A stretch of DNA of 64,000 bases from an uncultured bacterium (GCA_903827975.1 CAIKKG010000031.1:3717-67716), one strand, 5' to 3'; shown: positions 2,366 through 64,000, numbered from the stretch's first letter. Made by a program: numbers and translations. The notes: generated from the letters alone by a model not told the origin.

Positions 2366-3592
2366 TTACCATTTAATAGACGTTCTTACTGCTGGAGAAA
2401 AATTAAGACACACATCACACATCCCGCAATTTTCATTCGGGTATTTTTCTCCAAAATACTGAAGTAACATTTTTCTCCTACAAAAATTTGCGGTGCAATA
2501 CGTGACCATTGTTTCTAATTGTTGTTCTGCAATACGAATCTGATCTGGATCAGTTTTTTTGCTTATGAAAAATTCGTGTTTCATTTTATCGTGATAACTA
2601 AAAAATAGTATACACTCTGCTGGCTTTCCATCCCTGCCAGCGCGACCAGTTTCCTGATAATAACCTTCGATATTCTTGGGCAAATCATGGTGTATCACAA
2701 ACCGAACATTAGACTTATCTATTCCCATACCAAATGCAATTGTTGCTGTTACAACCTGAACACTTCCAGTCATAAATAGCTTTTGGTTTTTTTCTCTTTC
2801 CTTTTGTGGTAAACCCGCATGATAAACGCAGGCACTTATACCATCTGATAATAGATCCTTCGCAATACGATCTGCCGATGCCCTACTATGACAATAGATA
2901 ATTCCGGATTGACCAGCGTGGTCTTCTATATAATTTAATATCTCATCATATGAGTTTTGCTTTGGGCGAATAGCATAATGAAGATTTTTCCTATCAAAAC
3001 TACCACAAAACTGTTTATAGTCATGAAATGCTAACTGGCGCACTATATCACCGCGCACCTTAAGCGTTGCAGTGGCAGTTAGTGCAATTACTGGAACCTC
3101 TGGGAAAAGCCCTCGTACAAGCGATATTTTGCGATATTCGGGCCTAAAATCGTGCCCCCACTCGGAAATACAGTGCGCCTCATCAACGGCCAAAAGCGAG
3201 ACTGGAAGGGTTCTCAAGAAATCCATAAACCCATCCTTTAGCAATCGCTCAGGCGCCACATAAAGCAGTTTTATTTCTCCATTTTTTAACCGCTCTTTTA
3301 CTGATCTTTCTTCGCGAACGCCAAGGCTACTATTAAGATATGCGGCAGATATATCATTATCTTCCAATCCAGAAACCTGATCCTTCATTAGAGATATAAG
3401 AGGAGATACAACCAAAGTAATTCCTGGCAATAACATCGCAGGAAGCTGATAGCAGAGTGATTTACCACCCCCAGTCGGTAATAAAACTAATGTGTCGTTA
3501 CCACTTATAACATTTTCTATAATGTCTTTTTGAAGCGGCAAAAATTCGTCAAAGCCAAAATGCTTTTTTAGTATGCTATGCATGAGTCTCAA
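2366..3592 (-). CDS. recQ: RecQ-family ATP-dependent DNA helicase (short form: helicase core plus Zn-binding region, no HRDC)
   Basis: Walker A 'PTGGGKSLCYQLPA', DEAH box 'VDEAHCISEWGHDFR', C-terminal Cys cluster 'CGMCDVC'. Confidence 0.8.
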   Translation of the reverse strand: MRLMHSILKKHFGFDEFLPLQKDIIENVISGNDTLVLLPTGGGKSLCYQLPAMLLPGITLVVSPLISLMKDQVSGLEDNDISAAYLNSSLGVREERSVKERLKNGEIKLLYVAPERLLKDGFMDFLRTLPVSLLAVDEAHCISEWGHDFRPEYRKISLVRGLFPEVPVIALTATATLKVRGDIVRQLAFHDYKQFCGSFDRKNLHYAIRPKQNSYDEILNYIEDHAGQSGIIYCHSRASADRIAKDLLSDGISACVYHAGLPQKEREKNQKLFMTGSVQVVTATIAFGMGIDKSNVRFVIHHDLPKNIEGYYQETGRAGRDGKPAECILFFSYHDKMKHEFFISKKTDPDQIRIAEQQLETMVTYCTANFCRRKMLLQYFGEKYPNENCGMCDVCLNFSPAVRTSIKW

Positions 3593-6088
3593 TTATGCAG
3601 TATGAACTATACTCTTGTAAAACCACCTCTTTAAAATTTCAGCTAATACCAAATAAGTTATAAGCAACATGGCAATAGAACCGTATACGCTAAGTGGCAA
3701 CGTGACGAATGAAAAGACTGAACCCAATGGAGTTAGTGGTAATATCCACGCGAAAGTTACCAATAAGAAAGTAGAGAGAAATAATGCCAAGCTTGGAGAG
3801 CTCTGAATAAACGGGATTCGTTTTGTTCTAATAATATAAATAACGAAAACCTGTGTTGCAAATGACTCAATAAACCAGCCGGTCTGAAATTGTGATGGAG
3901 AAAGTTTGAATACAAAATACAAAAGCCCAAATGTTGAAAAATCAAAAATAGAACTTAGTAATCCGAAAGAGACCATATATTTTTTAATATAACCCATATT
4001 CCACTTTAGAGGCTTCATAATATCTTCCTTATCAACTGAGTCTGATGTAATAGTAAGTTGCGACATATCATATAAAACATTATTTAATAAAATCTGCCCT
4101 GGTAACATAGGCAAAAATGGCAACATTACAGACGCTCCAGTCATTGAAGCCATATTCCCAAAATTAGAACTAAGACCCATAGATATATATTTCATTGCAT
4201 TTTGAAATGTATGTCTTCCTTCATATATACCCTCATGAAGCACGCGTAAACTTTTTCGTATAAGAATAATGTCAGCTGTTTCTTTTGCCACATCAACAGC
4301 GTTATTAACAGATATACCAACATCAGCAGCTTTTAGCGCTGGCGCATCGTTAATTCCATCTCCGAGATAACCTACTGAATGCTTTTTATTTTTTAGTGCA
4401 ACTATGATTCGCTCTTTTTGATCGGGTGTAATTCTTGCAAAAATTGTAGTTGCCTCTGCCCTATTTCCCAATTCTTCATCTGTCATTTTTGCTATATCAC
4501 TTCCTAAAAGAATTTCTTTAATTGTTAGTTTAATGTCCTTACATATTTTCGCGGTTAATAATTCATTGTCTCCAGTAAGAATCTTAATCTCGACACCAAA
4601 TTCATTTAGGTCACTAATTGCTTTTTGTGCAGTTGCTTTAGGTGGATCAATAAATGCTGTAAACCCAAGAATTGTCATATCAGACTCATCATTCTTAGTG
4701 AATACTCGGTGTTCGTGTGGCATATGCCTTGTAGCAACAGCGAGAACGCGATACCCATCTTTACTATATTCTATGAATTTCTCATGAATTTTTTTACGCA
4801 TTTCATCAGTCAGCAATTCCTCTTTGTCTCCATTCATATATTTCTGAGAAATTGCAAAAATATCCTCTGGCGCGCCCTTGGAAATAATTATGTTGTGATT
4901 CTCTTCATTATTTTCTACAACAATTGAGTCTTTTTTACGTGTAAAATCGAATGGTATCTCGTCAATCTTCTCGTACCCGTGCATTGGAAGCTTCTCATGC
5001 ACGCAGATTGCCTCATCCAATGGGCCACGCACGCCAGTATGAAATGTGCTTGATAGATAAGAAAAAAGAAATACAGATTCTGAGTCATTACCAAAACAAT
5101 CTACATGTTTTATAAGAGTTATACGATTTTCGGTTAATGTTCCCGTCTTATCAGTACAAAGTATATCCATACTACCAAGACTTTGAATTGAGGATAGGTT
5201 CTTCACGATCACGTCCTTCTTGGCCATCTTTGAGGCGCCATGACTAAGTGAGACTGCCAAAATTACTGGCAAAAGTTCTGGGGTCAGACCGATTGCTATT
5301 GCAAGAGCAAATAGAAAAGAGTTTAGCCAGCCTTTATCAGTTATTACATTTGCTAAGAATACAAATGTAACTAATACAGCAGTAACCCTTACTATAAAAA
5401 TGCTGAACTCGCGTATACCTTTCTCAAAATCGGTTTCTGGTGGCTGTAGAGAAAGACTTTCTGCAATTTTTCCGAATTCTGTATTTTTGCCTATTGCTAA
5501 AACCTCTACCAAAGCAAATCCTGTTACAATGCTTGTTCCCATGCAAACTGCATATGGAGACTGCGGTGACATTTCAAACTGAACGTCGGCAAGAGCTTCT
5601 TTTTCAACAGGGAATGCCTCACCAGTCAGAGCAGACTGATTAATAAATAAATCCTTTGCCTTAATTACTCTGGCATCCGCAGGCACAACGTCACCAGCAG
5701 AAAGAAGTAGAAAATCACCAGGCACAAGTTCTGCAAAAGGAACCTCATGCTTTATTCCATCACGTAAAACAGTCGCGGTTGTGACTACGCGTGCAATAAG
5801 TTTTTCAATTGCTTTCTCGGAACGATACGAATTAACAAAATCGACAATCCCGGAAATTAAAATCATTGAAACGATAATAACGCCGTTTATTCGCTCACCA
5901 ACAAAAAAAGAAATTGTTGCGGCTACAACCAAAATAAGCAAAAGCGGATTATTAAACTTCTTAATAAAAGAAATTAGTGGTGCAAATTTCCTTCTATGAG
6001 AAAGTTCATTCGAGCCATATCTAAGTTGTCTCTTTTTAACCTCTTCTGTTGTAAGTCCGATTACATCATGTTCAAATAATTCTGCCAT
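3593..6088 (-). CDS. mgtA: P-type cation-transporting ATPase, MgtA-like (Mg2+ importer type)
   Basis: 'CTDKTGTLTEN' phosphorylation motif, 'GDGINDAPALK', MgtA-like 'DLFINQSALTGEAFPVEK'; 831 aa with multiple TM segments. Confidence 0.8.
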   Translation of the reverse strand: MAELFEHDVIGLTTEEVKKRQLRYGSNELSHRRKFAPLISFIKKFNNPLLLILVVAATISFFVGERINGVIIVSMILISGIVDFVNSYRSEKAIEKLIARVVTTATVLRDGIKHEVPFAELVPGDFLLLSAGDVVPADARVIKAKDLFINQSALTGEAFPVEKEALADVQFEMSPQSPYAVCMGTSIVTGFALVEVLAIGKNTEFGKIAESLSLQPPETDFEKGIREFSIFIVRVTAVLVTFVFLANVITDKGWLNSFLFALAIAIGLTPELLPVILAVSLSHGASKMAKKDVIVKNLSSIQSLGSMDILCTDKTGTLTENRITLIKHVDCFGNDSESVFLFSYLSSTFHTGVRGPLDEAICVHEKLPMHGYEKIDEIPFDFTRKKDSIVVENNEENHNIIISKGAPEDIFAISQKYMNGDKEELLTDEMRKKIHEKFIEYSKDGYRVLAVATRHMPHEHRVFTKNDESDMTILGFTAFIDPPKATAQKAISDLNEFGVEIKILTGDNELLTAKICKDIKLTIKEILLGSDIAKMTDEELGNRAEATTIFARITPDQKERIIVALKNKKHSVGYLGDGINDAPALKAADVGISVNNAVDVAKETADIILIRKSLRVLHEGIYEGRHTFQNAMKYISMGLSSNFGNMASMTGASVMLPFLPMLPGQILLNNVLYDMSQLTITSDSVDKEDIMKPLKWNMGYIKKYMVSFGLLSSIFDFSTFGLLYFVFKLSPSQFQTGWFIESFATQVFVIYIIRTKRIPFIQSSPSLALFLSTFLLVTFAWILPLTPLGSVFSFVTLPLSVYGSIAMLLITYLVLAEILKRWFYKSIVHTA

Positions 6089-6227
6089 AAATATATTATA
6101 CCCTGAATAAAAAATCTTATCTCATAAGCTGTTTAGAAGCTGATGAATCAGAATATGTGCCTTTACAAAACGCTAAGTATGTGTAATGATATGTGAGCTG
6201 GGCTGATGCCCTTTTACAAGGAGAAGT

Positions 6228-6548
6228 ATGAGAACGAGCTTCGCTGCGAGGAATATCCTCGCCAAGAAGAAGCGACTGACGGTGCAGTACACCATAAGTC
6301 GCTCCAATCCCCGCTTCCGCGGGGCCTGCAAGTGTGGGTCTGCGGAGGCCACGACCCTCACCGTCGACGTGAAGAGCGTCAGTGGAGAAGATGGGGTCCT
6401 TTCCCAAAAGGACCACGTCGCCAAGGCTGCGGGCCGTAAGGTCCAAAGCAATCTAGGTGCCGGGAAACGCCTCTGCGAGCACTGCTTCAAGCAGACGCTC
6501 GAGGTGGCCTCCCGCCCAGACGCACTGGGCCAGGTCTTCGCGAGCTAG
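6228..6548 (+). CDS. Hypothetical basic 106-aa protein with a CxC...CxxC zinc-ribbon-like motif, encoded in a ~60% GC island
   Basis: SD AAGGAG (6218-6223) 4 nt before the ATG; third codon positions ~80% G/C in this frame; terminator immediately downstream; no recognisable family. Confidence 0.5.
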   Translation: MRTSFAARNILAKKKRLTVQYTISRSNPRFRGACKCGSAEATTLTVDVKSVSGEDGVLSQKDHVAKAAGRKVQSNLGAGKRLCEHCFKQTLEVASRPDALGQVFAS

Positions 6549-6570
6549 TTTCGCAAAGACCACACAATAC

Positions 6571-6599
6571 CCGCGCTCCAATGGAGCGCGGTTTTTTTA
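6571..6599 (+). terminator. Rho-independent terminator of the GC-rich ORF
   Basis: CCGCGCTCC-aatg-GGAGCGCGG followed by TTTTTTT. Confidence 0.7.
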
Positions 6600-6629
6600 T
6601 TTCCAATTAAAGGGTATGATAGAGCTAAG

Positions 6630-7601
6630 ATGCTTATAGACGACGTAACACTAAAAATAACCGCTGGAAATGGCGGAAAAGGCAAGGTTGCCTTCAATAA
6701 AAACCTAATGGAGCTTGGCCCTGTCGGTGGTAGCGGAGGAAAGGGTGGTAGTGTCTATTTTGAAGGGACCTCTGATCTAAACGCTTTAAATAAGTTTCGC
6801 TTTAAGAAGAACGTGGACGCTGATAACGGCGAAGACGGAAAAGCGCAATTTAATGATGGCGCCGATGCAAAGGATTTAATACTTACAGTACCAGTTGGTA
6901 CGGTTATTCATGATTTAGAAAATAATGTGGATCATGAGATTGTAAAAATAGGAGAACGAATAATGATTGCAAAAGGTGGTAAAGGAGGCAGGGGTAATTT
7001 TCACTTTAGATCGGCAACAAATACAACGCCTAAGCAATTTCAGAGCGGAATACCTGGAGGAGAGGCAAAGGTTAGACTTGAGCTAAAATTAATCGCAGAC
7101 GTTGGTTTCGTTGGACTTCCTAATGTAGGAAAATCAAGTCTTCTAAATGAATTGACTAGGGCAAGCGCAAAGGTGGCAAATTACCCATTTACAACATTAG
7201 AGCCAAACCTAGGAACACACTTTGAGCTAATTCTTGCAGACATCCCAGGACTCATAGAAGGTGCCTCAATTGGAAAAGGACTTGGTATAAAATTCCTAAG
7301 GCATGTTGAGCGCACAACTACACTATTCCACTTTGTATCTGCTGAATCAGCTGATCCGGCGCTTGATTATAAAACAATAAGAAAGGAGCTTGGTGAATAT
7401 AATAAGGAACTTCTAAAACGAAAGGAGTACGTCTTCATTAGTAAGAGTGACGAGGTTAAGGTTGAAGACCTTAACAAAATGTTGAAGGCAATGAAAAAAC
7501 TAAACCCTAATACTATTGCAATCTCAATATATGACGACGAAAGCATAAAAGAGGTAGCGAAAATATTAAATATAATCACAAAAGAAAAGCACATAGCATA
7601 A
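6630..7601 (+). CDS. obg: GTPase Obg
   Basis: Gly-rich Obg fold N-terminus ('TAGNGGKGKVAF..GGSGGKGGSV') and G-domain 'GLPNVGKSSLL'. Confidence 0.9.
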   Translation: MLIDDVTLKITAGNGGKGKVAFNKNLMELGPVGGSGGKGGSVYFEGTSDLNALNKFRFKKNVDADNGEDGKAQFNDGADAKDLILTVPVGTVIHDLENNVDHEIVKIGERIMIAKGGKGGRGNFHFRSATNTTPKQFQSGIPGGEAKVRLELKLIADVGFVGLPNVGKSSLLNELTRASAKVANYPFTTLEPNLGTHFELILADIPGLIEGASIGKGLGIKFLRHVERTTTLFHFVSAESADPALDYKTIRKELGEYNKELLKRKEYVFISKSDEVKVEDLNKMLKAMKKLNPNTIAISIYDDESIKEVAKILNIITKEKHIA

Positions 7602-9309: not shown

Positions 9310-9999
9310 TTAAAGTAAATCTAGGTCACCTTCTAACACATTATCAACTTTTGTTATTTTCTTACCAGTTCTGTGATCTTTAACCTGCTTATATGGGTGC
9401 AACACATAAGACCGTATCTCATTGCCCCACTCTGGTTTAACCTTTGTTCTTAAGTTAGCTATATCTTTTTCGTGTTGAATCTCGGCAAGTTGTAATAATT
9501 TTGCCTTCATCATATTAATAGCACGCTCTTTATTTGCGGCTTGTGAACGTTCCTCTCTTGATGCAGTAACCACGCCAGTCGGTAGATGTACGATACGCAC
9601 AGCCGTTTCAACTTTATTTACATTCTGCCCACCAGGACCTCCCGCCCGCGTAAATTCAATCTTAATATCTTTCTCTGGAAGTTTAATATTCTTTGCTTCA
9701 ATCTCCGGAATTTCTGGTAGCACCTCAACAAGCGCAAATGATGTATGACGAAGTTTTTTTGCATCATACGGTGAGATACGCACAAGCCTATGAACACCGG
9801 TCTCACTCTTTAATCTATCAAAAACCCCCTGGCCTTTAATACCAATTACATAATCATCTATATACTGTATTTTCCACTGCTTTTTTTCGGCGAACCTTGA
9901 ATACATACGCAAAAGCATCTTTGCCCAATCTTTTGCATCATCACCACCAGCCCCAGCAAGCACGGAAACAGTTATCGCGTTTGGATTAACACTTATCAT
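9310..9999 (-). CDS. prfB: Peptide chain release factor 2 homolog lacking N-terminal domain 1 (domains 2-4 only)
   Basis: GGQ motif '[10 protein letters not shown]', 'SPY' in place of the RF2 SPF motif, '[11 protein letters not shown]' aligns to residue ~120 of E. coli RF2; no upstream coding space because of the tRNA. Confidence 0.75.
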
Positions 10000-10074
10000 G
10001 GAGCCAATGGTCGGAGTTGAACCGACGACCCACGCTTTACGAAAGCGTTGCTCTACCAGCTGAGCTACATTGGC
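9999..10074 (-). tRNA. tRNA-Thr (anticodon CGT), CCA encoded
   Basis: Hand-folded cloverleaf: acceptor GCCAATG/CATTGGC, D-arm AGCTCAGCTGGTAGAGC, anticodon stem ACGCT/AGCGT with loop TTCGTAA, T-arm GTCGG-TTCAACT-CCGAC. Confidence 0.8.
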
Positions 10075-10159: not shown

Positions 10160-10536
10160 TATTGAAGTAAGTCATAAGCCGGATTCTGTATCGTCGGCCG
10201 TTAAGCCAACTAGTGATAATTCATCTTGACCCGCGATTACTCGCAAGTTCTAGCGATTCTCCACTCATATAAATACGAATGACACGATCTTGCACTCTGG
10301 TAAGGATTTTGCCGTTTCACCTTCGCCTTGTTGTCCCTATAGCGAAGTTAAGCCACCTACGTTGGGATTGGGCTTCCTTTGGCTTTCGCCTAAGGCGTCA
10401 CTGCTCGCACCTCTGTCCTCGCGAACGACGGGGGTTACCCGCTACCATTATCAATGGCATAGCCACTGACTAAGTGTCCGGACTTTCCTCTCCTCATTAT
10501 TTCTAATAAAGAGCTATCACCTGTCTTACTTCATTT
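10160..10536 (-). ncRNA. rnpB: RNase P RNA (bacterial type A-like)
   Basis: Conserved 'GGAAAGTCCGGAC' near the 5' end and 'ACAGAATCCGGCTTA' near the 3' end; P1 pairing GAAGTAAG/CTTACTTC between the ends; GC-enriched structured region with no credible ORF. Confidence 0.75.
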
Positions 10537-11945: not shown

Positions 11946-12377
11946 TTAACGCTTTCTCCATTGCTGTGGTCTTCGAGCTTTTCGAAGTCCTGGCTTCTTG
12001 CGCTCCACCATGCGTGGGTCACGTTTCAAATATCCGAGCACCTTAAGAGGGGTGCGCCAGACGGGATTCATTATAATAAGTGCTCGAGAAATACCTAGGC
12101 GAATTGCCTCTGCCTGTCCCATAACACCACCACCCAAAGCCTTTACTGTAACATCATACTCGGTTATTGAGAGCGTTTTAAATGGCGCCAATACAGTAAG
12201 ACGATGCTTCTCTACTGGAAAGTATTTTGAGAACTCTTTGTCATTTATAGTAACGCTGCTTCCTGTTTTTGTGACGTGTAATCTTACACGAGCAACGGCG
12301 TTCTTACGGCGACCAACTGCTTCAAAATAGCGGCCTGCTTTGGTGACTTTAGTTGTTTTTGTTGTCTTAGGTGGCAT
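11946..12377 (-). CDS. rpsI: 30S ribosomal protein S9
   Basis: 'GRRKNAVARV...GGGVMGQAEAIRLGISRAL...KARRPQQWRKR'. Confidence 0.9.
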   Translation of the reverse strand: MPPKTTKTTKVTKAGRYFEAVGRRKNAVARVRLHVTKTGSSVTINDKEFSKYFPVEKHRLTVLAPFKTLSITEYDVTVKALGGGVMGQAEAIRLGISRALIIMNPVWRTPLKVLGYLKRDPRMVERKKPGLRKARRPQQWRKR

Positions 12378-12382
12378 AGATA

Positions 12383-12763
12383 TTAATCGCTAATTTTCAT
12401 GCGCTTCATGCGCCTTGCCGACAATTTATTCTTAGGAAGCATAAGACGAACCGCTCGGCGCAAAACCCAAGCTGGATTCTTCTCAAATGCATTTTCAAAT
12501 TTTGTCTCTTTCAAGTGACCGAGCGGACCTCCGTGCTTATAATACATCTTCTGTAGTGGTTTTTTTCCAGTTAACTCAATACTCTTGATGTTCTTTACAT
12601 CAACGGTATCAACACCTTCCACGCGAGGAGTATAATTTGGGCTTTTCTTTCCTTGCAAAATAGTTGCAATTTCAGATGCGAGGCGACCTAGCTTTTGATT
12701 TTTTGCGTCAAGTTCGTAGTGCATATTATACAAGTTCAATTGTTGCCATCTGCGACGCGTCAT
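12383..12763 (-). CDS. rplM: 50S ribosomal protein L13 (start chosen at MTRRRW to limit overlap with rplQ)
   Basis: 'LDAKNQKLGRLASEIA' aligns with L13 'VDATGKTLGRLATELA'; the tracker ORF extends further 5'. Confidence 0.8.
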   Translation of the reverse strand: MTRRRWQQLNLYNMHYELDAKNQKLGRLASEIATILQGKKSPNYTPRVEGVDTVDVKNIKSIELTGKKPLQKMYYKHGGPLGHLKETKFENAFEKNPAWVLRRAVRLMLPKNKLSARRMKRMKISD

Positions 12764-13076
12764 GCTTTCTGAGTCTAGCAATTTTTATAACGCGGGTGTA
12801 ACCGCCTTTTCGGTCAGCATATCGCGGAGCAATCTCGTGGTACAACTTATAAGCCGTTGCCTTAGGAAGATACCTCATCAAAAGACGCAATGATGCAACT
12901 GTCTGCTTTTTACCGTGCGTAATAAGTCGCTCAACAAAACCACGCAAATCTTTTGCACGAGCCTCAGTCGTTGTGATTTTCTCGTGCTGAATAAGGTTAT
13001 GCGCAAGTCCTTTTACAAATGCTTTGCGCTGCCCCTTCTCTCTTCCAAATTTTTTTCCTTTCTTTGCGTGACGCAT
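12726..13076 (-). CDS. rplQ: 50S ribosomal protein L17
   Basis: 'MRHAKKGKKFGR' L17 N-terminus; 116 aa. Confidence 0.9.
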   Translation of the reverse strand: MRHAKKGKKFGREKGQRKAFVKGLAHNLIQHEKITTTEARAKDLRGFVERLITHGKKQTVASLRLLMRYLPKATAYKLYHEIAPRYADRKGGYTRVIKIARLRKHDASQMATIELV

Positions 13077-13078
13077 GT

Positions 13079-13825
13079 TTATTTCTTCTTAGCTGTCTTT
13101 TTTTCTTTGTGTTCTCCAATTTCAGTCTTGGTAACCTCGACGCCAGATAACTTTTCAAAGTGATCCTTTAAAATGCTATCGGCTTTATGGAATGCCTCTG
13201 ATGGGGTAATTGAACCGTCCGTCTCAATTTCCAAAATAAGCTTATTGTAATCTGTTCTATCACCAACACGCATATTTTCAACTGAGAATGTAACACGCGT
13301 TACAGGAGAGAATACAGCATCAAGAACAATTGTTCCAACCGGAAGTCTCTCAAGCTTTCGTGATTCTGAAGGAACGTATCCAAGTCCCTTTTCAACTGTA
13401 ATTTCCAAATCTAGGTCAGCTGTTTTCTTAGAAAGCTTTGCTAGGTGTAGTCCCTCGTTAATAACCTTAACAAAGGTTGTTGACTCTATGTCTCCAGCAA
13501 CTATATCCTTCTCACCTTTAACGTGAAGTGTCAATGCCTGTGGCTCATCTGCAAAAAAGTGAAAACGAACCTTTTTCAAATTAAGTGAGAATTCAACAAT
13601 ATCTTCAACCATTCCAGGTAATACTGAAAATTCATGATTAATGCCCTTTATCTTTATCTGAGTTATTGCAGCACCTGGAAGTGATGACAATAAAACTCTT
13701 CGCAAAGAATTACCAAGCGTTACTCCATAACCGGTATATAAACCGTCTATGTGAAATAAGCCGATATTATCTTTTTCGGAAACCTTCTTTACAATAACTG
13801 ATTCACTAAGATGCGCGTATTTCAT
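13079..13825 (-). CDS. rpoA: DNA-directed RNA polymerase alpha subunit, N-terminal domain only (248 aa, no alpha-CTD)
   Basis: Alpha-NTD similarity throughout; the protein ends in a Lys-rich tail right after the NTD; position within the S13-S11-S4-rpoA-L17 cluster. Confidence 0.85.
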   Translation of the reverse strand: MKYAHLSESVIVKKVSEKDNIGLFHIDGLYTGYGVTLGNSLRRVLLSSLPGAAITQIKIKGINHEFSVLPGMVEDIVEFSLNLKKVRFHFFADEPQALTLHVKGEKDIVAGDIESTTFVKVINEGLHLAKLSKKTADLDLEITVEKGLGYVPSESRKLERLPVGTIVLDAVFSPVTRVTFSVENMRVGDRTDYNKLILEIETDGSITPSEAFHKADSILKDHFEKLSGVEVTKTEIGEHKEKKTAKKK

Positions 13826-13845
13826 ATGTTTTTTATTATTAATAA

Positions 13846-14445
13846 TTAGCGCGAATAGAATTGGCCGACTAAATTTATATCAAATGGGAATCTATACTCC
13901 TCTGTATTAGAGCTGGCGATACACTCACCCTTCAAATTCTCTAAATCAAGCTTAAGCCACTTAGGCATATCTGCATCCTTCAACCTCTCACGTATTCCTT
14001 CAAATAACTTTGAATCGCGAGACTCAGGACGAATCTCTACCTTATCACCAACTGAAACATGAAACGAGGCAATTGTCACTTTTCTTCCATTTACTAGTAT
14101 GTGGCCATGAGAAACCATCTGGCGTGCTATTCTAGGTGATTTTGCGAAACCAATGAGATAAGTGACGAAATCCAATCTCTGTCTAAGACTTGTCTCAATT
14201 TTTTCCCTAGGACCACCAAAAAGACGCTCCATCTGATGATTGCTCAATCCAAAATAAAATTGAATTTTTTGTTTCTCCTGCAATTGTTTTCCAAAATCTG
14301 AAATATTCCTCTGACGCTTTGCGCCATGCTGTCCAGGACGTTGTGGTCGGCGTACTGAAACACACTTAGGTGAATTACAACGATCTGCCTTTAGGAAAAG
14401 CTTTGTTCCGAGTGATCTTTCTTTTTTCTCTTTTATGCTTCGCAT
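13846..14445 (-). CDS. rpsD: 30S ribosomal protein S4
   Basis: S4 N-terminal Zn-finger-like region and 'QLQEKQK' motif; cluster context. Confidence 0.9.
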   Translation of the reverse strand: MRSIKEKKERSLGTKLFLKADRCNSPKCVSVRRPQRPGQHGAKRQRNISDFGKQLQEKQKIQFYFGLSNHQMERLFGGPREKIETSLRQRLDFVTYLIGFAKSPRIARQMVSHGHILVNGRKVTIASFHVSVGDKVEIRPESRDSKLFEGIRERLKDADMPKWLKLDLENLKGECIASSNTEEYRFPFDINLVGQFYSR

Positions 14446-14453
14446 GATTAAAA

Positions 14454-14903
14454 TTAAATTCTCCTGACTTTGCGCGGTCTAGGTCCGTTATGCGGTATCG
14501 GGGTAACATCCTTGATGCTCAAAATTTCAAATCCTTTTGCAGCAAGTGAACGAACCGCCGAATCACGACCTTTTCCAATACCACGCACAAATATCTCAAT
14601 TTTTATAGGACCAGATTTCTTTACTTTCTCTGCAATTGCTTCAGCAACCTTAGATGCTGCAAAAGGCGTTGCCTTTTTAGGACCGGAAAAACCAAGAGAG
14701 CCGGCTGAAAGCCATGCAACTGTATTACCCTTCTCATCTGTAACAGTCATTATTGTGTTATTCAAAGATGCCTGGATAAATACCTTGCCTTTTTCCACGC
14801 GTAATTTGCCCGATTGCTTTACTTCAGCAACCGCGGTGTCGACTCCAGCCGACTCCTTAAGCACCTTATCGTTTGATTCTTTTGCAACTTTTTTCTTTCC
14901 CAT
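14454..14903 (-). CDS. rpsK: 30S ribosomal protein S11
   Basis: S11 family similarity ('ASLNNTIMTVTDEKGN...FSGPKKATPFAA'); cluster context. Confidence 0.9.
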   Translation of the reverse strand: MGKKKVAKESNDKVLKESAGVDTAVAEVKQSGKLRVEKGKVFIQASLNNTIMTVTDEKGNTVAWLSAGSLGFSGPKKATPFAASKVAEAIAEKVKKSGPIKIEIFVRGIGKGRDSAVRSLAAKGFEILSIKDVTPIPHNGPRPRKVRRI

Positions 14904-14914
14904 GTTTGTTATGA

Positions 14915-15298
14915 TTACTTCAACTCAACCTTTCTCTTTCCGCTTCCGGCCGTTTTTCTTACGTTTCCGCGAACAGAGCGTGAATTCGTCTTAGTGCGCT
15001 GTCCTCTGACAGGAAGGCGACGCATGTGTCTTACACCCCTATACGTCTTAATCTCCTTCATTCTGGCAATGTTATGCTTCACTAACTGGCGAAGCTCTCC
15101 CTCAATCTTATAATCCTTTTCCATCGCCGACTGAATCTTGTTGATATCATCAGGTGTTAGATCCTTTGCAAATTTCTTAGGATCTATCTTAGCCTCAACA
15201 ACAATATGCTCAGCGCGTGCACGACCAATACCATACAAATATGTAAGTGCGATTTTTACTCTCTTATTATCCGGGATGTTTACACCAACGATTCTCAT
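14915..15298 (-). CDS. rpsM: 30S ribosomal protein S13
   Basis: 'MRIVGVNIPDNKRVKIALTYLYGIGRARA'. Confidence 0.9.
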   Translation of the reverse strand: MRIVGVNIPDNKRVKIALTYLYGIGRARAEHIVVEAKIDPKKFAKDLTPDDINKIQSAMEKDYKIEGELRQLVKHNIARMKEIKTYRGVRHMRRLPVRGQRTKTNSRSVRGNVRKTAGSGKRKVELK

Positions 15299-36702: not shown

Positions 36703-36787
36703 GGAGGGGTCGCATAGTGGTCTAGTGCGCAGTCCTGGAAAGACTGTATACCGCAAGGTATCGAGGGTTCAAATCCCTCCCCCTCCG
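36703..36787 (+). tRNA. tRNA-Ser (anticodon GGA), class II with a long variable arm
   Basis: Acceptor GGAGGGG/CCCCTCC, D-stem GCA/TGC, anticodon stem CAGTC/GACTG with loop CTGGAAA, variable arm hairpin ATACC-gcaa-GGTAT, T-arm GAGGG-TTCAAAT-CCCTC. Confidence 0.85.
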
Positions 36788-36943
36788 CAATTATATTAAA
36801 ACCACTTTCGCATAGGAGATGGGTTTAATATAACCATGGAAATAGGCTGGATTAGAACTTGTTCAAATCTTCACTATTTTCTTAATGAGTGTTCAAATTT
36901 AGAAAACAGCAATGCCGCGTAATCGTGCCCCCTCATCCACCAA

Positions 36944-45930: not shown

Positions 45931-46004
45931 AACGAAATGGCCCGGCACTTCGCGTGCCAGGGATACCACAGACGAACTTTAGTGTTCGAAATAAAAAAAG
46001 TCAA

Positions 46005-46045
46005 TCAACTAAAAATAAAAAGGCCCCCGCGGTTAGGCGGGGGCA
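46005..46045 (-). terminator. Strong rho-independent terminator downstream of the GC-rich ORF, upstream of uvrA
   Basis: GCCCCCGC-ctaac-GCGGGGGC followed by CTTTTTATTTTT on the minus strand. Confidence 0.75.
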
Positions 46046-46063
46046 GACAATATTTGGCCGATA

Positions 46064-46714
46064 TTACTCGGCGGGTGCGGCCTTCTTGGCCCTGGGCTTG
46101 CGCCTGGGGGTTGGAGCCGAAGCAACCAGCTCTGCCGGAGGCGGGACTACCACCAAGGGCTCGGGCTGATTTGCCATCCTGAGTTTAAGAAACTCACCCG
46201 CAGTGATGATGCGCAGACCACGACGAACGTCGTAGTAAAGCGCTACGGTCATCCCAGCCGAATCGTCCGAATGGACTGGCAAAACATCACCCGGCTCCAT
46301 TACAACGATGCCGTCTCCGACGACCTTCCTGCTACTAGTGATGCTCCAGCCGTAGGGCAGATCATCATCAGGCTCCTTTGGCCAGATGCCTGTCACCCGT
46401 ATCAGAATGCTGGTATCTGGGTCACCATCCTCCTCGGCAGAGAGGAGGTGGAAGTACTTGAGCCCCTCTGTGGTGCTCGCTCGGTCTTCGAGCTTCATCA
46501 GTGCGGTGGCAAAGATGCGACCGTTCTTCACGGTCGGGGGGTTCTTGAAAAAGAACCCCACTTTCTGGCACCACTGGTCCTTGCCATATCGGCCGAGAAC
46601 CACAGATTGGTGCGTCTCCTCGCCTTTCTTGGTGATGGTGGTGACGATGCCCGCAACTACTCGGGCAACTAAGGTACCTGCAGAATTCTGGAAAAACATA
46701 CTAAAACACTTCAT
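46064..46714 (-). CDS. Hypothetical 216-aa protein encoded mostly in ~60% GC DNA, with a Pro/Lys/Arg-rich C-terminal tail (PRRKPRAKKAAPAE). No family recognised
   Basis: ATG at 46714 preceded by GGAGG-6nt spacing; AT-rich first ~14 codons then a GC-rich body; consensus promoter upstream and terminator downstream; lies between uvrB and uvrA. Confidence 0.55.
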   Translation of the reverse strand: MKCFSMFFQNSAGTLVARVVAGIVTTITKKGEETHQSVVLGRYGKDQWCQKVGFFFKNPPTVKNGRIFATALMKLEDRASTTEGLKYFHLLSAEEDGDPDTSILIRVTGIWPKEPDDDLPYGWSITSSRKVVGDGIVVMEPGDVLPVHSDDSAGMTVALYYDVRRGLRIITAGEFLKLRMANQPEPLVVVPPPAELVASAPTPRRKPRAKKAAPAE

Positions 46715-46925
46715 TAGAAACCTCCTGCGCCACGAAGGGCGCAAAACCTAAAATGATGCGGATTATTTTTCCTGCCCCGCACCAAAAGGTGGGCAGTTGC
46801 TCTCAGACGAGAAGCGCACTGAATACCTAAAAATAGATAGACACGCAGTACGCCACTCATCTAAAAGTAATTAAATTAAAATCTATTACGTTTTCAATGT
46901 GCTTTTATAATACGATAACAAATGT

Positions 46926-46954
46926 ATTCTACCCTAATTATATGATTTTGTCAA
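46926..46954 (-). promoter_or_regulatory. Near-consensus sigma70 promoter (TTGACA-17 nt-TAGAAT) driving the GC-rich ORF through a ~200-nt leader
   Basis: Minus-strand read TTGACAaaatcatataattagggTAGAAT, immediately 3' of the uvrB stop. Confidence 0.55.
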
Positions 46955-46971
46955 TACAAATTCTGCGCACG

Positions 46972-59229: not shown

Positions 59230-59640
59230 ACACAGCCACACGTAACTATGCGCAAAGACGTACAAAGATGTGCAAAGACTTGCAACAACGCGCAAAGATG
59301 TGCAAACAAATTTAACTATGCATAAAGATGTGAAAAGACGTGTAACCATGTGCAAAGATACACAAAGACTAGCAAACAAATTTAACTATGCATAAAGATG
59401 TGAAAAGACGTGCAAGACTTTAAAAGACTTGCAACAACGCGCAAAGATGTGCAAACAAATTTAACCATACGCAAAGATACACAAAGACTTGCAACCATGT
59501 GCAAAGATACACAAAGACTTGCAAACAAATTTAACTATGCGCAAAGACTTGCAAAAACGTGCAAAGATGTGAAAAGACGTGTAACCATGTGCAAAGATAC
59601 ACAAAGACTAGCAAACAAATTTAACTACTTACAAACAGAT
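59230..59640. repeat. Degenerate tandem array. ~70-90-bp units anchored by GCAAACAAATTTAAC, each built from ~11-bp subrepeats (RYGCAAAGAYR)
   Basis: Anchors at ~59303, 59371, 59450, 59521 and 59611; CAAAGA words recur with ~11-bp phase. Confidence 0.7.
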
Positions 59641-59652
59641 AGTGATAAAACA

Positions 59653-59684
59653 ATACTCCACTACAGTTAACTGTAGTGGAGTAT
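59653..59684. repeat. Perfect 32-bp palindrome ATACTCCACTACAGTT|AACTGTAGTGGAGTAT, downstream of the TrpR-like gene
   Basis: Exact reverse-complement symmetry; shares a 20-bp core with the palindrome at 60339-60378. Confidence 0.8.
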
Positions 59685-59827: not shown

Positions 59828-60181
59828 CTAAAGTCTATGCTTGCCCTTATACCGCGGTGATCGTTTTCTAAACTCTCGTTCATATGGTGTTAATTGCTTA
59901 TGAACAGGAGCTGCTTTTATAAAATTATGTTTTACAAAACTAATAGTTACTGGGCTTACATCCAATATATCGCCAATAGCTTTATAGCTCAGCTTTTGTT
60001 TAATCAAAATCTTAATTGAGAGTCTTTTTTCAAGCATTATTATTTCGCTCTGTGTAAAGTATTTTTTCAAATTCGAGATAAAAACTTCTTGCGAGTCTGA
60101 ATTTTTCACCTCACTTAAAAAAGTGTTCCAGGCGTCTGTCTGTATTTTTTTATCTAGATATTTTTTACTTATATTTACCAT
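59828..60181 (-). CDS. TrpR/YerC-YecD-like small HTH DNA-binding protein
   Basis: 'LEKRLSIKILIKQKLSYKAIGDILDVSPVTISFVK' matches the TrpR-like YerC/YecD HTH. Confidence 0.55.
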   Translation of the reverse strand: MVNISKKYLDKKIQTDAWNTFLSEVKNSDSQEVFISNLKKYFTQSEIIMLEKRLSIKILIKQKLSYKAIGDILDVSPVTISFVKHNFIKAAPVHKQLTPYEREFRKRSPRYKGKHRL

Positions 60182-60338: not shown

Positions 60339-60378
60339 TACCAGATGGCACTACAGTTAACTGTAGTGCCATCTGGTA
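60339..60378. repeat. Perfect 40-bp palindrome TACCAGATGGCACTACAGTT|AACTGTAGTGCCATCTGGTA, upstream of the TrpR-like gene
   Basis: Exact symmetry; core CACTACAGTTAACTGTAGTG is identical to the 59653-59684 palindrome; the outer arms differ but remain self-complementary. Confidence 0.8.
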
Positions 60379-60415
60379 TACACCAATACTTGTGTTTTGG
60401 TTGTTGCTTATTAGT

Positions 60416-60690
60416 TGTGATTATATATATTCAGTAGTTATGAATTAGTGGTTGTTAGTTATTAATTGTGAGTTAAGAGTTATTGATTATTAGCTGTGAG
60501 TTAAGAGTTATTAATTGCGAGTTAAAGATCATTGATTGTTAGTTGCGAGCTAATGGTTATTGGTTGTGATTATATATATTCAGTAGTTATGAATTACTGG
60601 TTGCTAGTTATTAGTTGTGAGTTAAAGGTTAAAGGTTGTTAGTTGTGGGTTGTTAGTTGTGGGTTGTTAGTTCAATGTTGCTGCTTAAAA
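60416..60690. repeat. AT-rich minisatellite. ~45-bp direct repeat (GTGATTATATATATTCAGTAGTTATGAATTA..) at 60416 and 60569, plus GTTGTTAGTTGTGGG and GTTATTAATTGTGAGTTAAGA subrepeats
   Basis: Direct inspection of the non-coding region between the TrpR-like gene and the giant surface-protein gene. Confidence 0.65.
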
Positions 60691-60725
60691 AATAATCCCC
60701 GCTTTTGCGGGGAGTATTTTTTTAC
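60690..60725. terminator. Bidirectional terminator at the 3' end of the giant surface-protein gene
   Basis: CCCCGC-tttt-GCGGGG flanked by A- and T-runs. Confidence 0.7.
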
Positions 60726-63700
60726 TTTATCAACTTGTCCAGATTGAATCCTTCTGTTGTGTCGGTATCTGCGCGACGATTGCCAAATGAATCATGGTCG
60801 AATCGTGGAGCGGTAAGACGATAAGAGATTTCTAGTGTTTTACTAGCACTCTTTGTGTCCTGCTTTGCATAAACAATAATCTTTCCATCCTTCTTCTCGT
60901 ACCAGGTGCGTCCGTCGAAGTTCGGCGAGACTAGAACAGTTACATTATCCAATCCCTCGTTTGCTAGATTTGTTGTTTTTGCGAATAGCCACAAATCAGA
61001 TGCCTCTGGTGAATTTTTCAAATCAAGTACCGCGGAACATTTATCGCCCAAGACCTGACATTTAACATTACCGGTCGCCTCTTCTTTTACACCAGACATA
61101 CTAGGCACATAAGTTGCATACTTCTTTCCATCAATTGTGTACGGTGGGTCAACGGTTCCGACATCAATCTTTCCTGCGCCACCTCCGACAGTGATAGTTC
61201 CTGCTGTCTGGAGAATGTTAATACGAGAAGTATTGTTAAAGTCCATGTAATATGCGGCATCATTCCAGTCAAACATATACTGAGGACGCACATCTACGAT
61301 ATATGCCTGATCAACATAATAAAGTTGGTTTAAGCGGCTTGAGCCAGCAGGATCAAGATAGAAAGCAGTGTTATCCTTGTCATAATATAAAGGCGCCTGC
61401 ATATTATCTCTCGCGCGGATACTTCCTGAAATTGCGGCTAGGAAGGTTCCGTTTTCCATTACGAGTAAACCATGTGAGTTTAAGTTAGACGCAACACCAC
61501 CAGCATTCGGATGAGACCACGCAAGTCCATAAAGACTTCCTGTTGTTGAGCCATCTGCTGGAAGCATGTATGAACTATCCATTGCAAACACAGCCTGATA
61601 TCTGGTTGATGTATATGTTCCAACTACACCAATTCCATAATTATTAAACTTCAAATTTCCAGACATTGTGTCGCCAGATTTCAAAACGTAATTCGATAAA
61701 GATCCAGTTGCATATCCGCAGTTATTAGAGTTATCACACACCGTACGCCAACCCTGCCAGCCGGAATTATATCTTCTAAAATAAAGTTGATCATCCCACA
61801 TATTCTGCACAATTTGGAACCCATACGCCTGATCACCTGGATGAGAGCCAACAGAAATACCATTTGAATAACAGGCGCCACTTCCGTTATTTGCACAACC
61901 AGTATTCCACGAATAAAAAGGTCTTAGTCCTGTACCAGGATGAGAATTGTCAGGGTTTGAAGAATATCCATTTACCTTATCAGCTGTGCTAGAGTTACCG
62001 GCAGAATTTGCGTAGCCCACGCTCAATGAAGTGCGAGCCGCTAGATATGAACTTCCATTTGAATCAGCACCCCAAAGATATGTTGGACTATTACTTGCAT
62101 TTGACCATGCGAAATGCTGACTATCTACGGTGTCGGCATTGCCAGCGCTATCGGCATATGGACGATATGTGTCTGAATATATTCTGTACCAAGAATTCCA
62201 GGTATTATTATCACCATTTTTTGTTCTATACGAAAAGCCAGTTCCACCGCCATAATTTGCATTAAGCTCAAGGTCATAATTGCTAGAATTAAATCTAACC
62301 ACTGGACCAGTCCAAGGAGCTCCAACTGAATATGTAAATCCAGACCTGTTTGCCCCCATCCAGTTTGCATCAAGCGTGAATCCTTCATACTGAAAGAAAC
62401 TTGAAGCGTGCATACTATCAACAGTATCCGCATTCGATACCGTACCGCTTAATGTTCCTGAAACAGTAAGATTGTTTAAGCGTGATGTTCCATTTGGATC
62501 TAAATAATAGGCGGTATCCTGTCTATCATAAAGAATGTTTGGCCTAATATCATTTAAATAGGAAACGCTATTTGGATCTACATAATAACTAGTATCTGCA
62601 GCATCATAAATTACGCCTGGCACTAGGATACCATTTGCAGCATTTCCAAGAGTTAGCTGGCCCGCATCTTTCTGAATGTAGAGCATGTTACAGCATCCTC
62701 CAGCATATGTAGCACGAGCAGCCCACTGATTATCAATATATGACTGAATTGAATTCGTGTTATCTCCGTTTATCTGCCCAATCACAATTCCATCTACGTT
62801 ATTAAGTGGGGTAGAAACATCTAGCGTTCCCCTTGGCACGTTCGTACCAATACCGACATTGCCACTATTATCAATAACCATCTTCTGGTTGAATGTTGTT
62901 CCGTTATAAGTTCCAAAGGTAATCTTACCCATTCCGCCATAGTTCGATGTGTAAATGGACATTTCATAAGGACCACCTCCCATGTCAGTTCCTAATCCCA
63001 TATATGCATTCGCATCTGCATCAAGACCAAAAAGCTGGAGACGTGGAGATCCCGCATAACCGCCACCAATCATCATTGCTGGAGCATTACTTAATTTTTG
63101 AACCTGGAATTTATAAGTAGGTGCTGTCGTGCCAATACCAACATTGCCATCTGTTCCAAACCAAGCACTGAATGTACCGCAACTTGCTGTTGCACAAATC
63201 TTTGTTGGTCCGGGGCGACGATAATTAATTTCCAAAGTATCGCCAGAAACACCTGAATTAATTGTATCCGCATATACGTCCCTCCCCACGAAGCCGTACG
63301 CATTATCAGAAACGTAATAATAATTAGGTGCATATATGTTTCCATTCGTCTCAATATTCGTTTGATTTGAGCTACCAAAGTATGCACCGCCGTAATGATA
63401 TACTCTGTACCAATTTTCGATTGAACTGTTAAGATTGATTCTCATATTTTCATTTCCGGCCACTGAGCGGAAATGAAATGCGGAGTTGTTATCAAAATAC
63501 ATACCACCAGCATCTGCTCTAAGATGCATATTACCTCCATCATATGGCCTGAACCAGTTACCAGCAGCAGCAGTTGAATACATATAACCAGTCGTCGACA
63601 TCGCGATATTAGAATTACCACCCATTGTAAGAGAGCCGGTCATCGTGTCGCCCGCTTTCAATACATAATTTGAACCAACTGCATATCCGCAGTTATTTCC

Positions 63701-64000
63701 TGAGTCACATACTGTGTATGTTCCACGTTGATACATTGTTCCAGATGCTTGGACATCTCCAGCTACGGTGAGCTTATATCCAGGTGCCGTTGTACCAATG
63801 CCGACATTTCCGGCTGGGGTAATACGTACCTTTTCTGTGCTATCTGTATAAAATTGCAATGTTCCATCGGCTGATGAGCCCATTCCACCATCAGTATCTC
63901 CAGGGCCTGAGAAAATAAAACCTCCGGCCTGTCCGCCTGGTGAACCAGCGCTTGCACGGAAATATGTTGCCTGCGCAACATTGAAGTTCGAAGTGCCATT
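60722..64000 (-). CDS. Giant Gly/Asn/Tyr/Ser/Thr-rich secreted surface protein with repeated 'GNVGIGTxxP' tail-fibre-like motifs; 5' end lies beyond the window
   Basis: The frame stays open from 63884 to 64000 with the same composition, so the M at 63883 is internal; motifs 'GNVGIGTTAPGYKL', 'GNVGIGTTAPTYKF', 'GNVGIGTNVPRGTL'. Confidence 0.6.
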   Translation of the reverse strand, partial: NGTSNFNVAQATYFRASAGSPGGQAGGFIFSGPGDTDGGMGSSADGTLQFYTDSTEKVRITPAGNVGIGTTAPGYKLTVAGDVQASGTMYQRGTYTVCDSGNNCGYAVGSNYVLKAGDTMTGSLTMGGNSNIAMSTTGYMYSTAAAGNWFRPYDGGNMHLRADAGGMYFDNNSAFHFRSVAGNENMRINLNSSIENWYRVYHYGGAYFGSSNQTNIETNGNIYAPNYYYVSDNAYGFVGRDVYADTINSGVSGDTLEINYRRPGPTKICATASCGTFSAWFGTDGNVGIGTTAPTYKFQVQKLSNAPAMMIGGGYAGSPRLQLFGLDADANAYMGLGTDMGGGPYEMSIYTSNYGGMGKITFGTYNGTTFNQKMVIDNSGNVGIGTNVPRGTLDVSTPLNNVDGIVIGQINGDNTNSIQSYIDNQWAARATYAGGCCNMLYIQKDAGQLTLGNAANGILVPGVIYDAADTSYYVDPNSVSYLNDIRPNILYDRQDTAYYLDPNGTSRLNNLTVSGTLSGTVSNADTVDSMHASSFFQYEGFTLDANWMGANRSGFTYSVGAPWTGPVVRFNSSNYDLELNANYGGGTGFSYRTKNGDNNTWNSWYRIYSDTYRPYADSAGNADTVDSQHFAWSNASNSPTYLWGADSNGSSYLAARTSLSVGYANSAGNSSTADKVNGYSSNPDNSHPGTGLRPFYSWNTGCANNGSGACYSNGISVGSHPGDQAYGFQIVQNMWDDQLYFRRYNSGWQGWRTVCDNSNNCGYATGSLSNYVLKSGDTMSGNLKFNNYGIGVVGTYTSTRYQAVFAMDSSYMLPADGSTTGSLYGLAWSHPNAGGVASNLNSHGLLVMENGTFLAAISGSIRARDNMQAPLYYDKDNTAFYLDPAGSSRLNQLYYVDQAYIVDVRPQYMFDWNDAAYYMDFNNTSRINILQTAGTITVGGGAGKIDVGTVDPPYTIDGKKYATYVPSMSGVKEEATGNVKCQVLGDKCSAVLDLKNSPEASDLWLFAKTTNLANEGLDNVTVLVSPNFDGRTWYEKKDGKIIVYAKQDTKSASKTLEISYRLTAPRFDHDSFGNRRADTDTTEGFNLDKLIK

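Follow-up and report, generated by a model that had tools for sequence, protein, structure and literature searches.

A GC-rich small gene upstream of obg in an AT-rich Patescibacteria-like genome: resident in its lineage rather than recently imported?

Atypical GC content is routinely taken as a mark of recent horizontal gene transfer (HGT) or of contamination in metagenome-assembled genomes (MAGs), and the locus described here raises the question of whether this interpretation is justified. The window, that is, the whole 64,000-nt stretch of DNA from an uncultured bacterium (GCA_903827975.1 CAIKKG010000031.1:3717-67716) that was analysed, contains upstream of obg a short GC-rich gene, hereafter the small gene, which encodes a protein of 106 amino acids (aa). 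The initial annotation described it as a foreign, unameliorated cassette implying very recent transfer, a chimeric or contaminating assembly, or an engineered insertion. Our analysis led to a different reading, to which we assign a probability of roughly 55%: the small gene is a lineage-resident, fast-evolving gene for a protein with a Cys3(Cys/His) site, it was not recently imported, and its GC-richness is held by selection on the transcript. Judged by its composition and codons, the gene could hardly look more foreign, yet it is syntenic in relatives and has kept its composition through complete synonymous turnover, unlike the fast gene adjacent to it in those relatives. The locus is thus a clean counter-example to the routine interpretation, and automated foreign-DNA or decontamination filters would wrongly discard the gene.

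The stretch 6162–6598 is a self-contained transcription unit comprising a promoter, a conserved leader, a strong Shine-Dalgarno (SD) sequence, an open reading frame (ORF) of 106 codons, and an intrinsic terminator:

6162–6190 (+): promoter-like site TTTACA-17-AATGAT with an upstream TG, found by consensus scan, overlapping the first CCTTTACAA box (6160–6168)
6198–6227 (+): 5′ leader CTGGGC-N4-GCCC-TTTTACAA, conserved in the alignment, then the SD sequence AAGGAG at 6218–6223
6228–6548 (+): coding sequence of the 106-aa basic protein (isoelectric point 10.1) with a Cys3(Cys/His) site, 61.7% GC, GC content at third codon positions (GC3) 0.78, supported by homologues and by the ratio of nonsynonymous to synonymous divergence (dN/dS); predicted peptides LTVQYTISR and QTLEVASRPDALGQVFAS
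6571–6598 (+): intrinsic terminator CCGCGCTCC-AAT-GGAGCGCGG followed by T7, with a 9-bp stem (8 GC pairs) at 6571–6591

The SD sequence, placed 4 nt ahead of the start codon (ATG at 6228), the dedicated terminator before obg, and the basic character of the product had all been recognized in the initial annotation, and they stand.

The GC content of the window was 39.0% overall and 35–39% in the genes flanking the small gene, against the surrounding value of about 35% given earlier. In 50-nt bins across 6201–6550, the GC fraction ranged from 0.50 to 0.72, and the GC1/2/3 values of the ORF were 0.58/0.50/0.78. The 62 native ORFs of the window had a GC3 of 0.321 ± 0.045 with a maximum of 0.46, which places the small gene about 10 standard deviations away and confirms the compositional anomaly upstream of obg. 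Since the GC3 of the ribosomal-protein block at 11946–15298 was just 0.29–0.44, the value of the small gene does not reflect expression-linked codon bias. The codon-adaptation index built from native genes was 0.418 for the small gene against 0.707 ± 0.022 (minimum 0.66) for the native genes, with the rarest synonymous codons being favoured, such as GTC, GCC, CTC, ACG, and AAG. Two GC islands were found in the window: every 100-nt interval within 6226–6600 and nearly every one within 46001–46675 had at least 55% GC. Outside them, this level was reached only in isolated runs of one to three intervals, the RNase P RNA among them.

The exact small protein was also found in the NCBI MAG GCA_037131435.1 (MEI6479521.1), in ENA assemblies, and in one Logan assembly. 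Contigs with an identical Obg were present in Logan ERR4194093 (18.8 kb), ERR4195066, and SRR20698640 and in NCBI GCA_026396755.1 (Candidatus Jorgensenbacteria). These four contigs, which came from different runs and repositories and were assembled independently, were 100% identical to the window over 6080–6640 and differed from it at 0–3 positions over up to 7 kb. Because the independently assembled contigs cross both junctions, at 6190 and 6600, these points are not chimera breakpoints, and chimerism or contamination is excluded. The compositional boundaries are sharp, and two short contigs (L001 and L002) both break at window position 6172, as would suit an assembly chimera, contaminating reads, or an engineered insert. 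Against this stand the four longer contigs, the annotation of the exact protein in a fifth assembly (GCA_037131435.1), and the diverged homologues in other natural metagenomes, and we consider the chance of any such artefact to be practically nil. L001 and L002 are independent ENA contigs that start at exactly 6172 and share a C-to-G change in the leader at window position 6217 (TTTTACAAGG to TTTTAGAAGG); this common start and common change suggest an assembly-graph branch point, with coexisting strains differing upstream of the promoter.

A word-indexed protein search returned only the query itself. When 1.84 billion representative proteins were scanned exhaustively with HMMER, the full-length small homologues P0009, P0011, P0012, and P0014 were recovered (E = 3e-20 to 1e-5). 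A profile search added P0017, P0018, and P0019, bringing the family to 8 clusters (90% identity) in a total of 5.8 billion proteins. The giant immunoglobulin (Ig)-repeat proteins P0008, P0010, P0013, P0015, and P0016 were rejected as spurious, since their scores were sums of many weak repeat matches between a TVTVDG-like segment and Big_13, Ig_7, and cadherin repeats. All 8 clusters lie on metagenome contigs or MAGs of relatives of the window genome; for two of them NCBI gives a name, namely Patescibacteria in one case and the window's own species in the other, and the remaining contigs encode Obg and FtsX proteins 79–90% identical to those of the window. No homologue was found outside Patescibacteria-like contigs in these protein collections, in IMG/VR viral contigs, or, by tblastn, among INPHARED phages and PLSDB plasmids. 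In line with the earlier statement that no family was recognized, nothing scored above the cut-off in Pfam, PHROGs, PADLOC, or NCBIfam. A full-text literature search gave no account of this phenomenon or family.

The position of the gene is shared as well. In the window, its neighbourhood is as follows:

2366–3592: recQ
3593–6088 (−): divergent P-type cation ATPase (Pfam E1-E2_ATPase, Cation_ATPase_N/C), the upstream neighbour, separating the small gene from recQ; the name mgtA would be reasonable but putative
6630–7601: obg, the downstream neighbour

Of the seven other genomes, six (L009, L012, L018, L020, L025, and L026) have the homologue directly upstream of obg. The gene order in L009, L012, and L020 is secreted partner, homologue, and obg, then ftsX, ftsE, and prfB on the opposite strand, while the short contigs L018, L025, and L026 end inside obg. 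RecQ is encoded upstream wherever the contig of a relative extends far enough, as in the window. On the short contig L019, the small gene adjoins the 3′ end of an ATPase gene instead. The first 10 positions of this ENA contig read TAAGAGACAG, which we take to be the end of a Nextera/Tn5 mosaic-end adapter that was probably left untrimmed.

Promoter, leader, and terminator show conservation among the homologous loci, and an equivalent GC hairpin with a T-run follows the stop codon in every homologue. When the leader motif was scanned against GTDB species genomes, 116 stretches matched and only that of the P0011 genome (L085) was real; the one real match among JGI metagenome contigs was an incomplete copy at the end of L148. 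Mobility signatures were not seen at the small gene: there was no integrase and no flanking repeat, the neighbours are the ATPase gene and obg, and the nearest transfer RNA (tRNA) gene, at 9999, is not adjacent. Within the window, no part of the island recurs except its own terminator palindrome, and no further copy exists. With the gene at the orthologous site in relatives, under the same promoter and leader, and identical in sister strains, neither the foreign origin nor the very recent transfer proposed earlier was upheld.

The GC enrichment is likewise a property of the family. The GC3 of the homologues was 0.68–0.88, compared with 0.28–0.73 in neighbouring genes, an excess of 0.15–0.48 in all 8 genomes (Wilcoxon p = 0.004); the homologous loci themselves ranged from 39% to 56% GC, and GC2 of the homologues was raised too. 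At the four-fold sites shared by pairs of homologues, 75 bases were identical, 61 were G/C swaps, 60 were strong/weak, and 2 were weak/weak differences. Base identity was therefore 38%, near the random expectation, while the G/C state was retained. Saturated synonymous sites with many G/C swaps indicate that the GC-richness is actively maintained and is not a donor remnant. A recent unameliorated import would give the opposite four-fold pattern, and the composition proved equally atypical in all diverged homologues; consequently, the unameliorated state assumed in the initial annotation is not supported.

A control is provided by the gene immediately upstream of the small gene in relatives, the partner (L009 191–880; L012 5261–5890; L018 261–932; L020 232–984; L023 873–1532), which is missing from the window, where the P-type ATPase gene occupies its position. 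The partner proteins are 205–250 aa long, and their N-terminus resembles a signal peptide; of the five that were translated, four end in C(F/V)(Y/F)(D/E)(D/E); no match above cut-off was found in Pfam, PHROGs, PADLOC, or NCBIfam. The partner gene lies about 110–130 bp from the small gene and is equally divergent (25–39% identity between relatives, 72% in one close pair), yet its GC3 lies within −0.02 to +0.16 of the neighbours. This argues against a locus-wide mutational, recombination, or conversion cause and points to something specific to the transcription unit of the small gene.

The segment 6190–6600 was predicted to fold at −187.8 kcal/mol (z = −6.9 against dinucleotide-preserving shuffles) into a chain of local hairpins. 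Compared with synonymous-codon shuffles, which keep the protein and the codon composition, the ORF reached z = −4.0 and four homologues −1.8 to −2.2, against a mean of −0.47 (standard deviation 1.3) for 19 native control segments of the window. The GC-rich genes differed from 23 controls, i.e., these 19 segments and four obg segments, with p = 2.5e-4 (Mann–Whitney). Rfam 15 gave nothing at the gathering threshold on 6050–6650, where the best sub-threshold match was trpB (30.1 bits against a cut-off of 59), covering the terminator region alone. We read the folding as a general excess of stable local pairing, not as a defined RNA fold, and regard it as suggestive, not as proof, of selection on messenger RNA (mRNA) stability or translatability.

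Alignment of the sequences upstream of the homologues showed, as common elements, a −35 box CCTTTACA (CTTTACA kept), a TGTGTAAT-type extended −10, and a strong AAGGAGG SD sequence. The leader motif, with a spacer of N3–4 across the loci, occurs once in the window and is kept in six of the seven homologous loci having upstream sequence. RNAalifold paired the GCCCUUUU segment with the SD region through 8 pairs, all of which are invariant and thus without covariation support; on this model, GCCCUUUU may serve as an anti-SD element with a regulatory role. The CCTTTACAA box is present twice, about 48–50 bp apart, even at the most divergent locus (L020). One further ORF overlaps the small gene:

6173–6490 (−): antisense ORF, 105 aa, TTG start

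Its third codon positions fall on the same bases as those of the sense ORF, and it reaches into the AT-rich promoter region; it was therefore judged to be a by-product of the high GC3 of the sense strand and not a gene.

The small protein is coding and under purifying selection. For the two closest pairs, dN/dS was 0.13 (L009 versus L023; dN 0.075, dS 0.58) and 0.09 (L012 versus L026), which, together with the codon-position profile and the conserved residues, bears out the earlier claim of genuine coding. The protein also evolves many times faster than its housekeeping neighbours. It is 29–48% identical between genomes whose Obg, FtsX, and FtsE proteins are 79–89%, 84–90%, and 96–98% identical, respectively; in the two closest genome pairs, it is 85% and 74% identical and the partner 72% and 39%. 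The family tree is incongruent with that of Obg: by Obg, L018 belongs with L020 (88%), whereas by the small protein it groups with L012 and L026 (46% and 40%) and shares their CxxC insertion pattern. Such incongruence suggests that the allelic lineages are old or that relatives have exchanged alleles.

All 8 sequences have Cys at positions 34, 36, and 83 (C34, C36, and C83). At position 86, His replaces Cys in P0009 and P0017, the other six having Cys, so that the cysteine motif noted earlier behaves as a conserved metal-site signature. Further invariant positions are A7, K13, V19, L58, S59, D62, A68, and Q102, and a C-terminal motif (R/K/Q)(P/A)D-x-x-GQ-x-F is present in seven of the eight. 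The confident AlphaFold2 model, built from only five sequences (predicted local distance difference test score (pLDDT) 80.9, predicted template-modelling score 0.72), comprises a long β-hairpin (4–26), the CxC loop, strands (42–58), a helix (63–76), and a helix (84–94) that starts with the CxxC. A fold search with this model gave no match in PDB or BFVD and no treble-clef structure among its matches. The initial annotation had suggested a zinc ribbon; four conserved Cys/His ligands at the sequence level (C34, C36, C83, and position 86) and the basic character agree with this, but the two β-hairpin zinc knuckles and the three-stranded ribbon around one Zn are not seen in the model. Its predicted secondary-structure layout fits a treble clef, with a β-hairpin knuckle plus two ligands from a helix turn (a comparison at the level of secondary structure), and the predicted ligand arrangement would resemble a treble clef more closely than a zinc ribbon. 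Like the treble-clef and zinc-ribbon proteins L31, L32, L33, L36, and YacG, the protein is small and basic and has one predicted four-ligand site, with a CxC/CxxC knuckle in a β-hairpin loop, CxxC/CxxH about 47 residues on, and a Cys-to-His swap at one ligand position, which is typical of true zinc sites. From its sequence, it presumably carries a single Cys3(Cys/His) metal site occupied by zinc. It would represent a family of small basic proteins that is very rare and whose predicted α/β fold has no detectable relative. The family would be new, with zinc as its predicted metal and without sequence or structural relatives, and it is encoded next to the gene of the ribosome-assembly GTPase Obg.

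The second GC island contains another gene, located between uvrB and uvrA:

46020–46960 (−): second GC-rich unit with promoter, leader, SD sequence AGGAGG, 216-aa ORF, and terminator
46954–46926 (−): promoter, near-consensus TTGACA-17-TAGAAT
46715–46925 (−): 5′ leader of about 200 nt with GC hairpins; the hairpin 46746–46723 includes the AGGAGG SD sequence
46064–46714 (−): ORF, 216 aa, 56.5% GC, GC3 0.66
46044–46023 (−): terminator

The second cassette placed earlier at 45931–46971 thus exists with its own promoter and terminator, on the minus strand and with the ORF at 46064–46714. Its leader may be a cis-regulatory element; the island gave no match in Rfam (E-value mode). The sole homologue, P0007 (67% aa identity), occupies the same site in the sister MAG GCA_037131435.1 (L007 3740–4780). 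The flanks of these two alleles are almost everywhere 98–100% identical, and conservation extends over the promoter, the leader, and roughly the first 30 codons, whereas the ORF is hypervariable, showing 60–76% nucleotide identity with a dN of 0.23 and a dS of 0.75. A divergent ORF within near-identical flanks indicates recombinational allele replacement. The other allele has a GC3 of 0.71, and both alleles are over-folded, their halves giving z values of −2.2 to −3.4 against synonymous-codon shuffles. The second protein had nothing above cut-off in Pfam, PHROGs, PADLOC, or NCBIfam, and its AlphaFold2 model was unusable (pLDDT 41.8). The idea that it is the relocated partner of the relatives was dropped for lack of similarity. 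The two GC-rich proteins of the window have no sequence similarity to each other either; what both genes share is a syndrome (orphan status, fast-evolving or exchanged alleles, autonomous signals, GC-richness, and a structured mRNA), not ancestry.

Residence without recent import follows from the same slot upstream of obg in relatives with the same promoter and leader. As for the composition, selection would act on the transcript of the small gene, the likeliest target being a compact, very stable mRNA fold that makes the message long-lived or slowly translated, combined with the leader that is able to mask the SD sequence. The protein itself would be a zinc-dependent nucleic-acid-binding or regulatory factor, which may act on its own duplicated CCTTTACAA boxes. 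If selection on the mRNA is real, it would amount to an unrecognized layer of gene-specific regulation or protection in Patescibacteria.

Several observations weigh against this explanation. Rare codons and a stable structure fit poorly with a strong SD sequence and a near-consensus promoter. The reverse strand of the island folds equally well, so that the folding signal identifies no RNA-level function. The excess folding of the homologues is modest, and two of the 19 native controls reach z values of about −3.1 and −3.7, while RNAalifold found no conserved base-paired structure across the homologues (−10.9 kcal/mol, few pairs). The GC3 excess of the window copy is +0.48 compared with +0.15 to +0.32 elsewhere, a gap that uniform selection leaves unexplained. 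Autoregulation through the CCTTTACAA boxes is a conjecture, and no match in Pfam, NCBIfam, PHROG, PADLOC, PDB, or BFVD hints at a biochemical function.

Two of the alternatives attribute the composition to exchange of DNA. A recent horizontal acquisition from a high-GC donor, or, in a weaker form, the replacement of a resident allele from a GC-richer relative by recombination in the conserved flanks, would account for the outlying composition and codon usage, for the window copy having the largest GC3 excess of the family, and for the placement of L018, and allele replacement was directly seen at the second GC-rich gene. Patescibacteria have also been reported to retain recombination genes and natural competence (PMC12455944). 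The small gene resembles the compositional genomic islets ascribed to HGT in that it departs extremely from the host in GC, GC3, and codon usage and in that it is a single gene with its own signals between housekeeping genes. It differs from them in being syntenic in relatives, in an odd composition that outlasts saturated synonymous divergence, and in having no donor, mobility genes, or flanking repeats that could be found. The shared slot, promoter, and leader, the absence of homologues beyond Patescibacteria-like contigs in the protein, virus, phage, and plasmid collections searched, the GC3 excess in all 8 genomes, and the lack of flanking repeats, an integrase, or further copies in the window all speak against such an acquisition; moreover, two sister strains with 33% aa divergence in the second GC-rich gene carry the same sequence at this locus. 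Taken together, this makes the acquisition unlikely. GC-biased gene conversion at a recombination hot spot, in which allelic exchange raises GC at all codon positions without transcript selection, would agree with the hypervariability of the locus, its incongruence with the Obg tree, the recombination import at the other GC-rich gene, and the elevation of GC at all three codon positions. Lassalle et al. 2015 reportedly found that recombining bacterial genes tend toward higher GC3. However, the partner, located only 110–130 bp upstream and as divergent, has an essentially genomic GC3, and the GC-rich tract follows the bounds of the transcript (leader hairpin to terminator) and not those of a recombination tract. 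To our knowledge, an effect of +0.15 to +0.48 in GC3 is far above the bacterial conversion effects reported. We therefore regard biased conversion as a doubtful sole cause. As contributors, either it or an older replacement of the resident allele from a GC-richer relative is possible, especially with regard to the large excess in this genome.

The functional product could alternatively be a structured non-coding or dual-function RNA, with the ORF being incidental or secondary. The exceptionally stable fold with its consecutive local hairpins would fit this, as would the high GC content in an AT-rich genome, which is typical of structured RNAs, and the ORF was left uncalled by gene callers in several assemblies. 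It is nevertheless very improbable in view of the strong three-base periodicity, the retention of the ORF in all homologues with a dN/dS near 0.1, three invariant cysteines, and indel lengths divisible by three, the conserved SD sequence and ATG, and the lack of an Rfam match at the gathering threshold and of a consensus structure or covariation across the homologues. Compared with the highly structured mRNAs of small genes under tight control, for example type I toxin mRNAs such as hok, and with the dual-function small RNAs SgrS and RNAIII, the small gene is likewise a short independent unit whose predicted mRNA fold is unusually stable and whose leader can pair with the SD sequence. Its product, however, is predicted to be a soluble, basic 106-aa zinc protein rather than a short hydrophobic peptide, there is no evident antisense RNA gene or conserved long-range pairing, and no sign of toxicity was seen.

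Returning to selection on the transcript, a broader and quite speculative extension is that the small gene and, independently, the gene between uvrB and uvrA belong to a class of ‘GC-locked’, lineage-specific, hyper-evolving Patescibacteria genes, in which such selection holds GC3 at 0.66–0.88 in genomes of GC3 0.3–0.7 and over-folds the mRNAs. The messages might in this way survive or escape AU-directed RNA decay by stress, toxin, or phage RNases, or they might be translated under particular conditions only. If this holds true, a streamlined symbiont genome would use a compositional code specific to individual genes, coupled to a zinc protein whose fold is predicted to be new.

The remaining features concern other parts of the window. 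At the gathering threshold, Rfam identified only an RNase P RNA and two tRNAs in the whole window:

9999–10074 (−): tRNA-Thr(CGU)
10160–10532 (−): RNase P RNA class A, 118.5 bits, with the P12–P14 region of the model replaced by shorter insertions
36703–36788 (+): tRNA-Ser(GGA)

A 117-aa Trp-repressor/helix-turn-helix-like gene (59828–60181, −; PF01371, E = 8.5e-8) is flanked by degenerate short tandem-repeat arrays at 59230–59627 and 60400–60672. The repeat unit is GCAAAGAYGT in one array, with higher-order periods of 70 and 149 nt, and TAGTTGTGAGTTAT in the other. Near-identical palindromes ACTACAGTTAACTGTAGT are located at 59658–59680 and 60350–60372, and AT and GC skews reach extreme local values. 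In appearance, the arrays resemble iterons or operator arrays. Beyond them, an ORF of 1053 aa (60722–63883, −) has no Pfam match, and its N-terminus GTLQFYTDSTEKVRITPAGNVGIGTTAPGYKLTVAGDV recalls tail-fibre or surface-repeat proteins.

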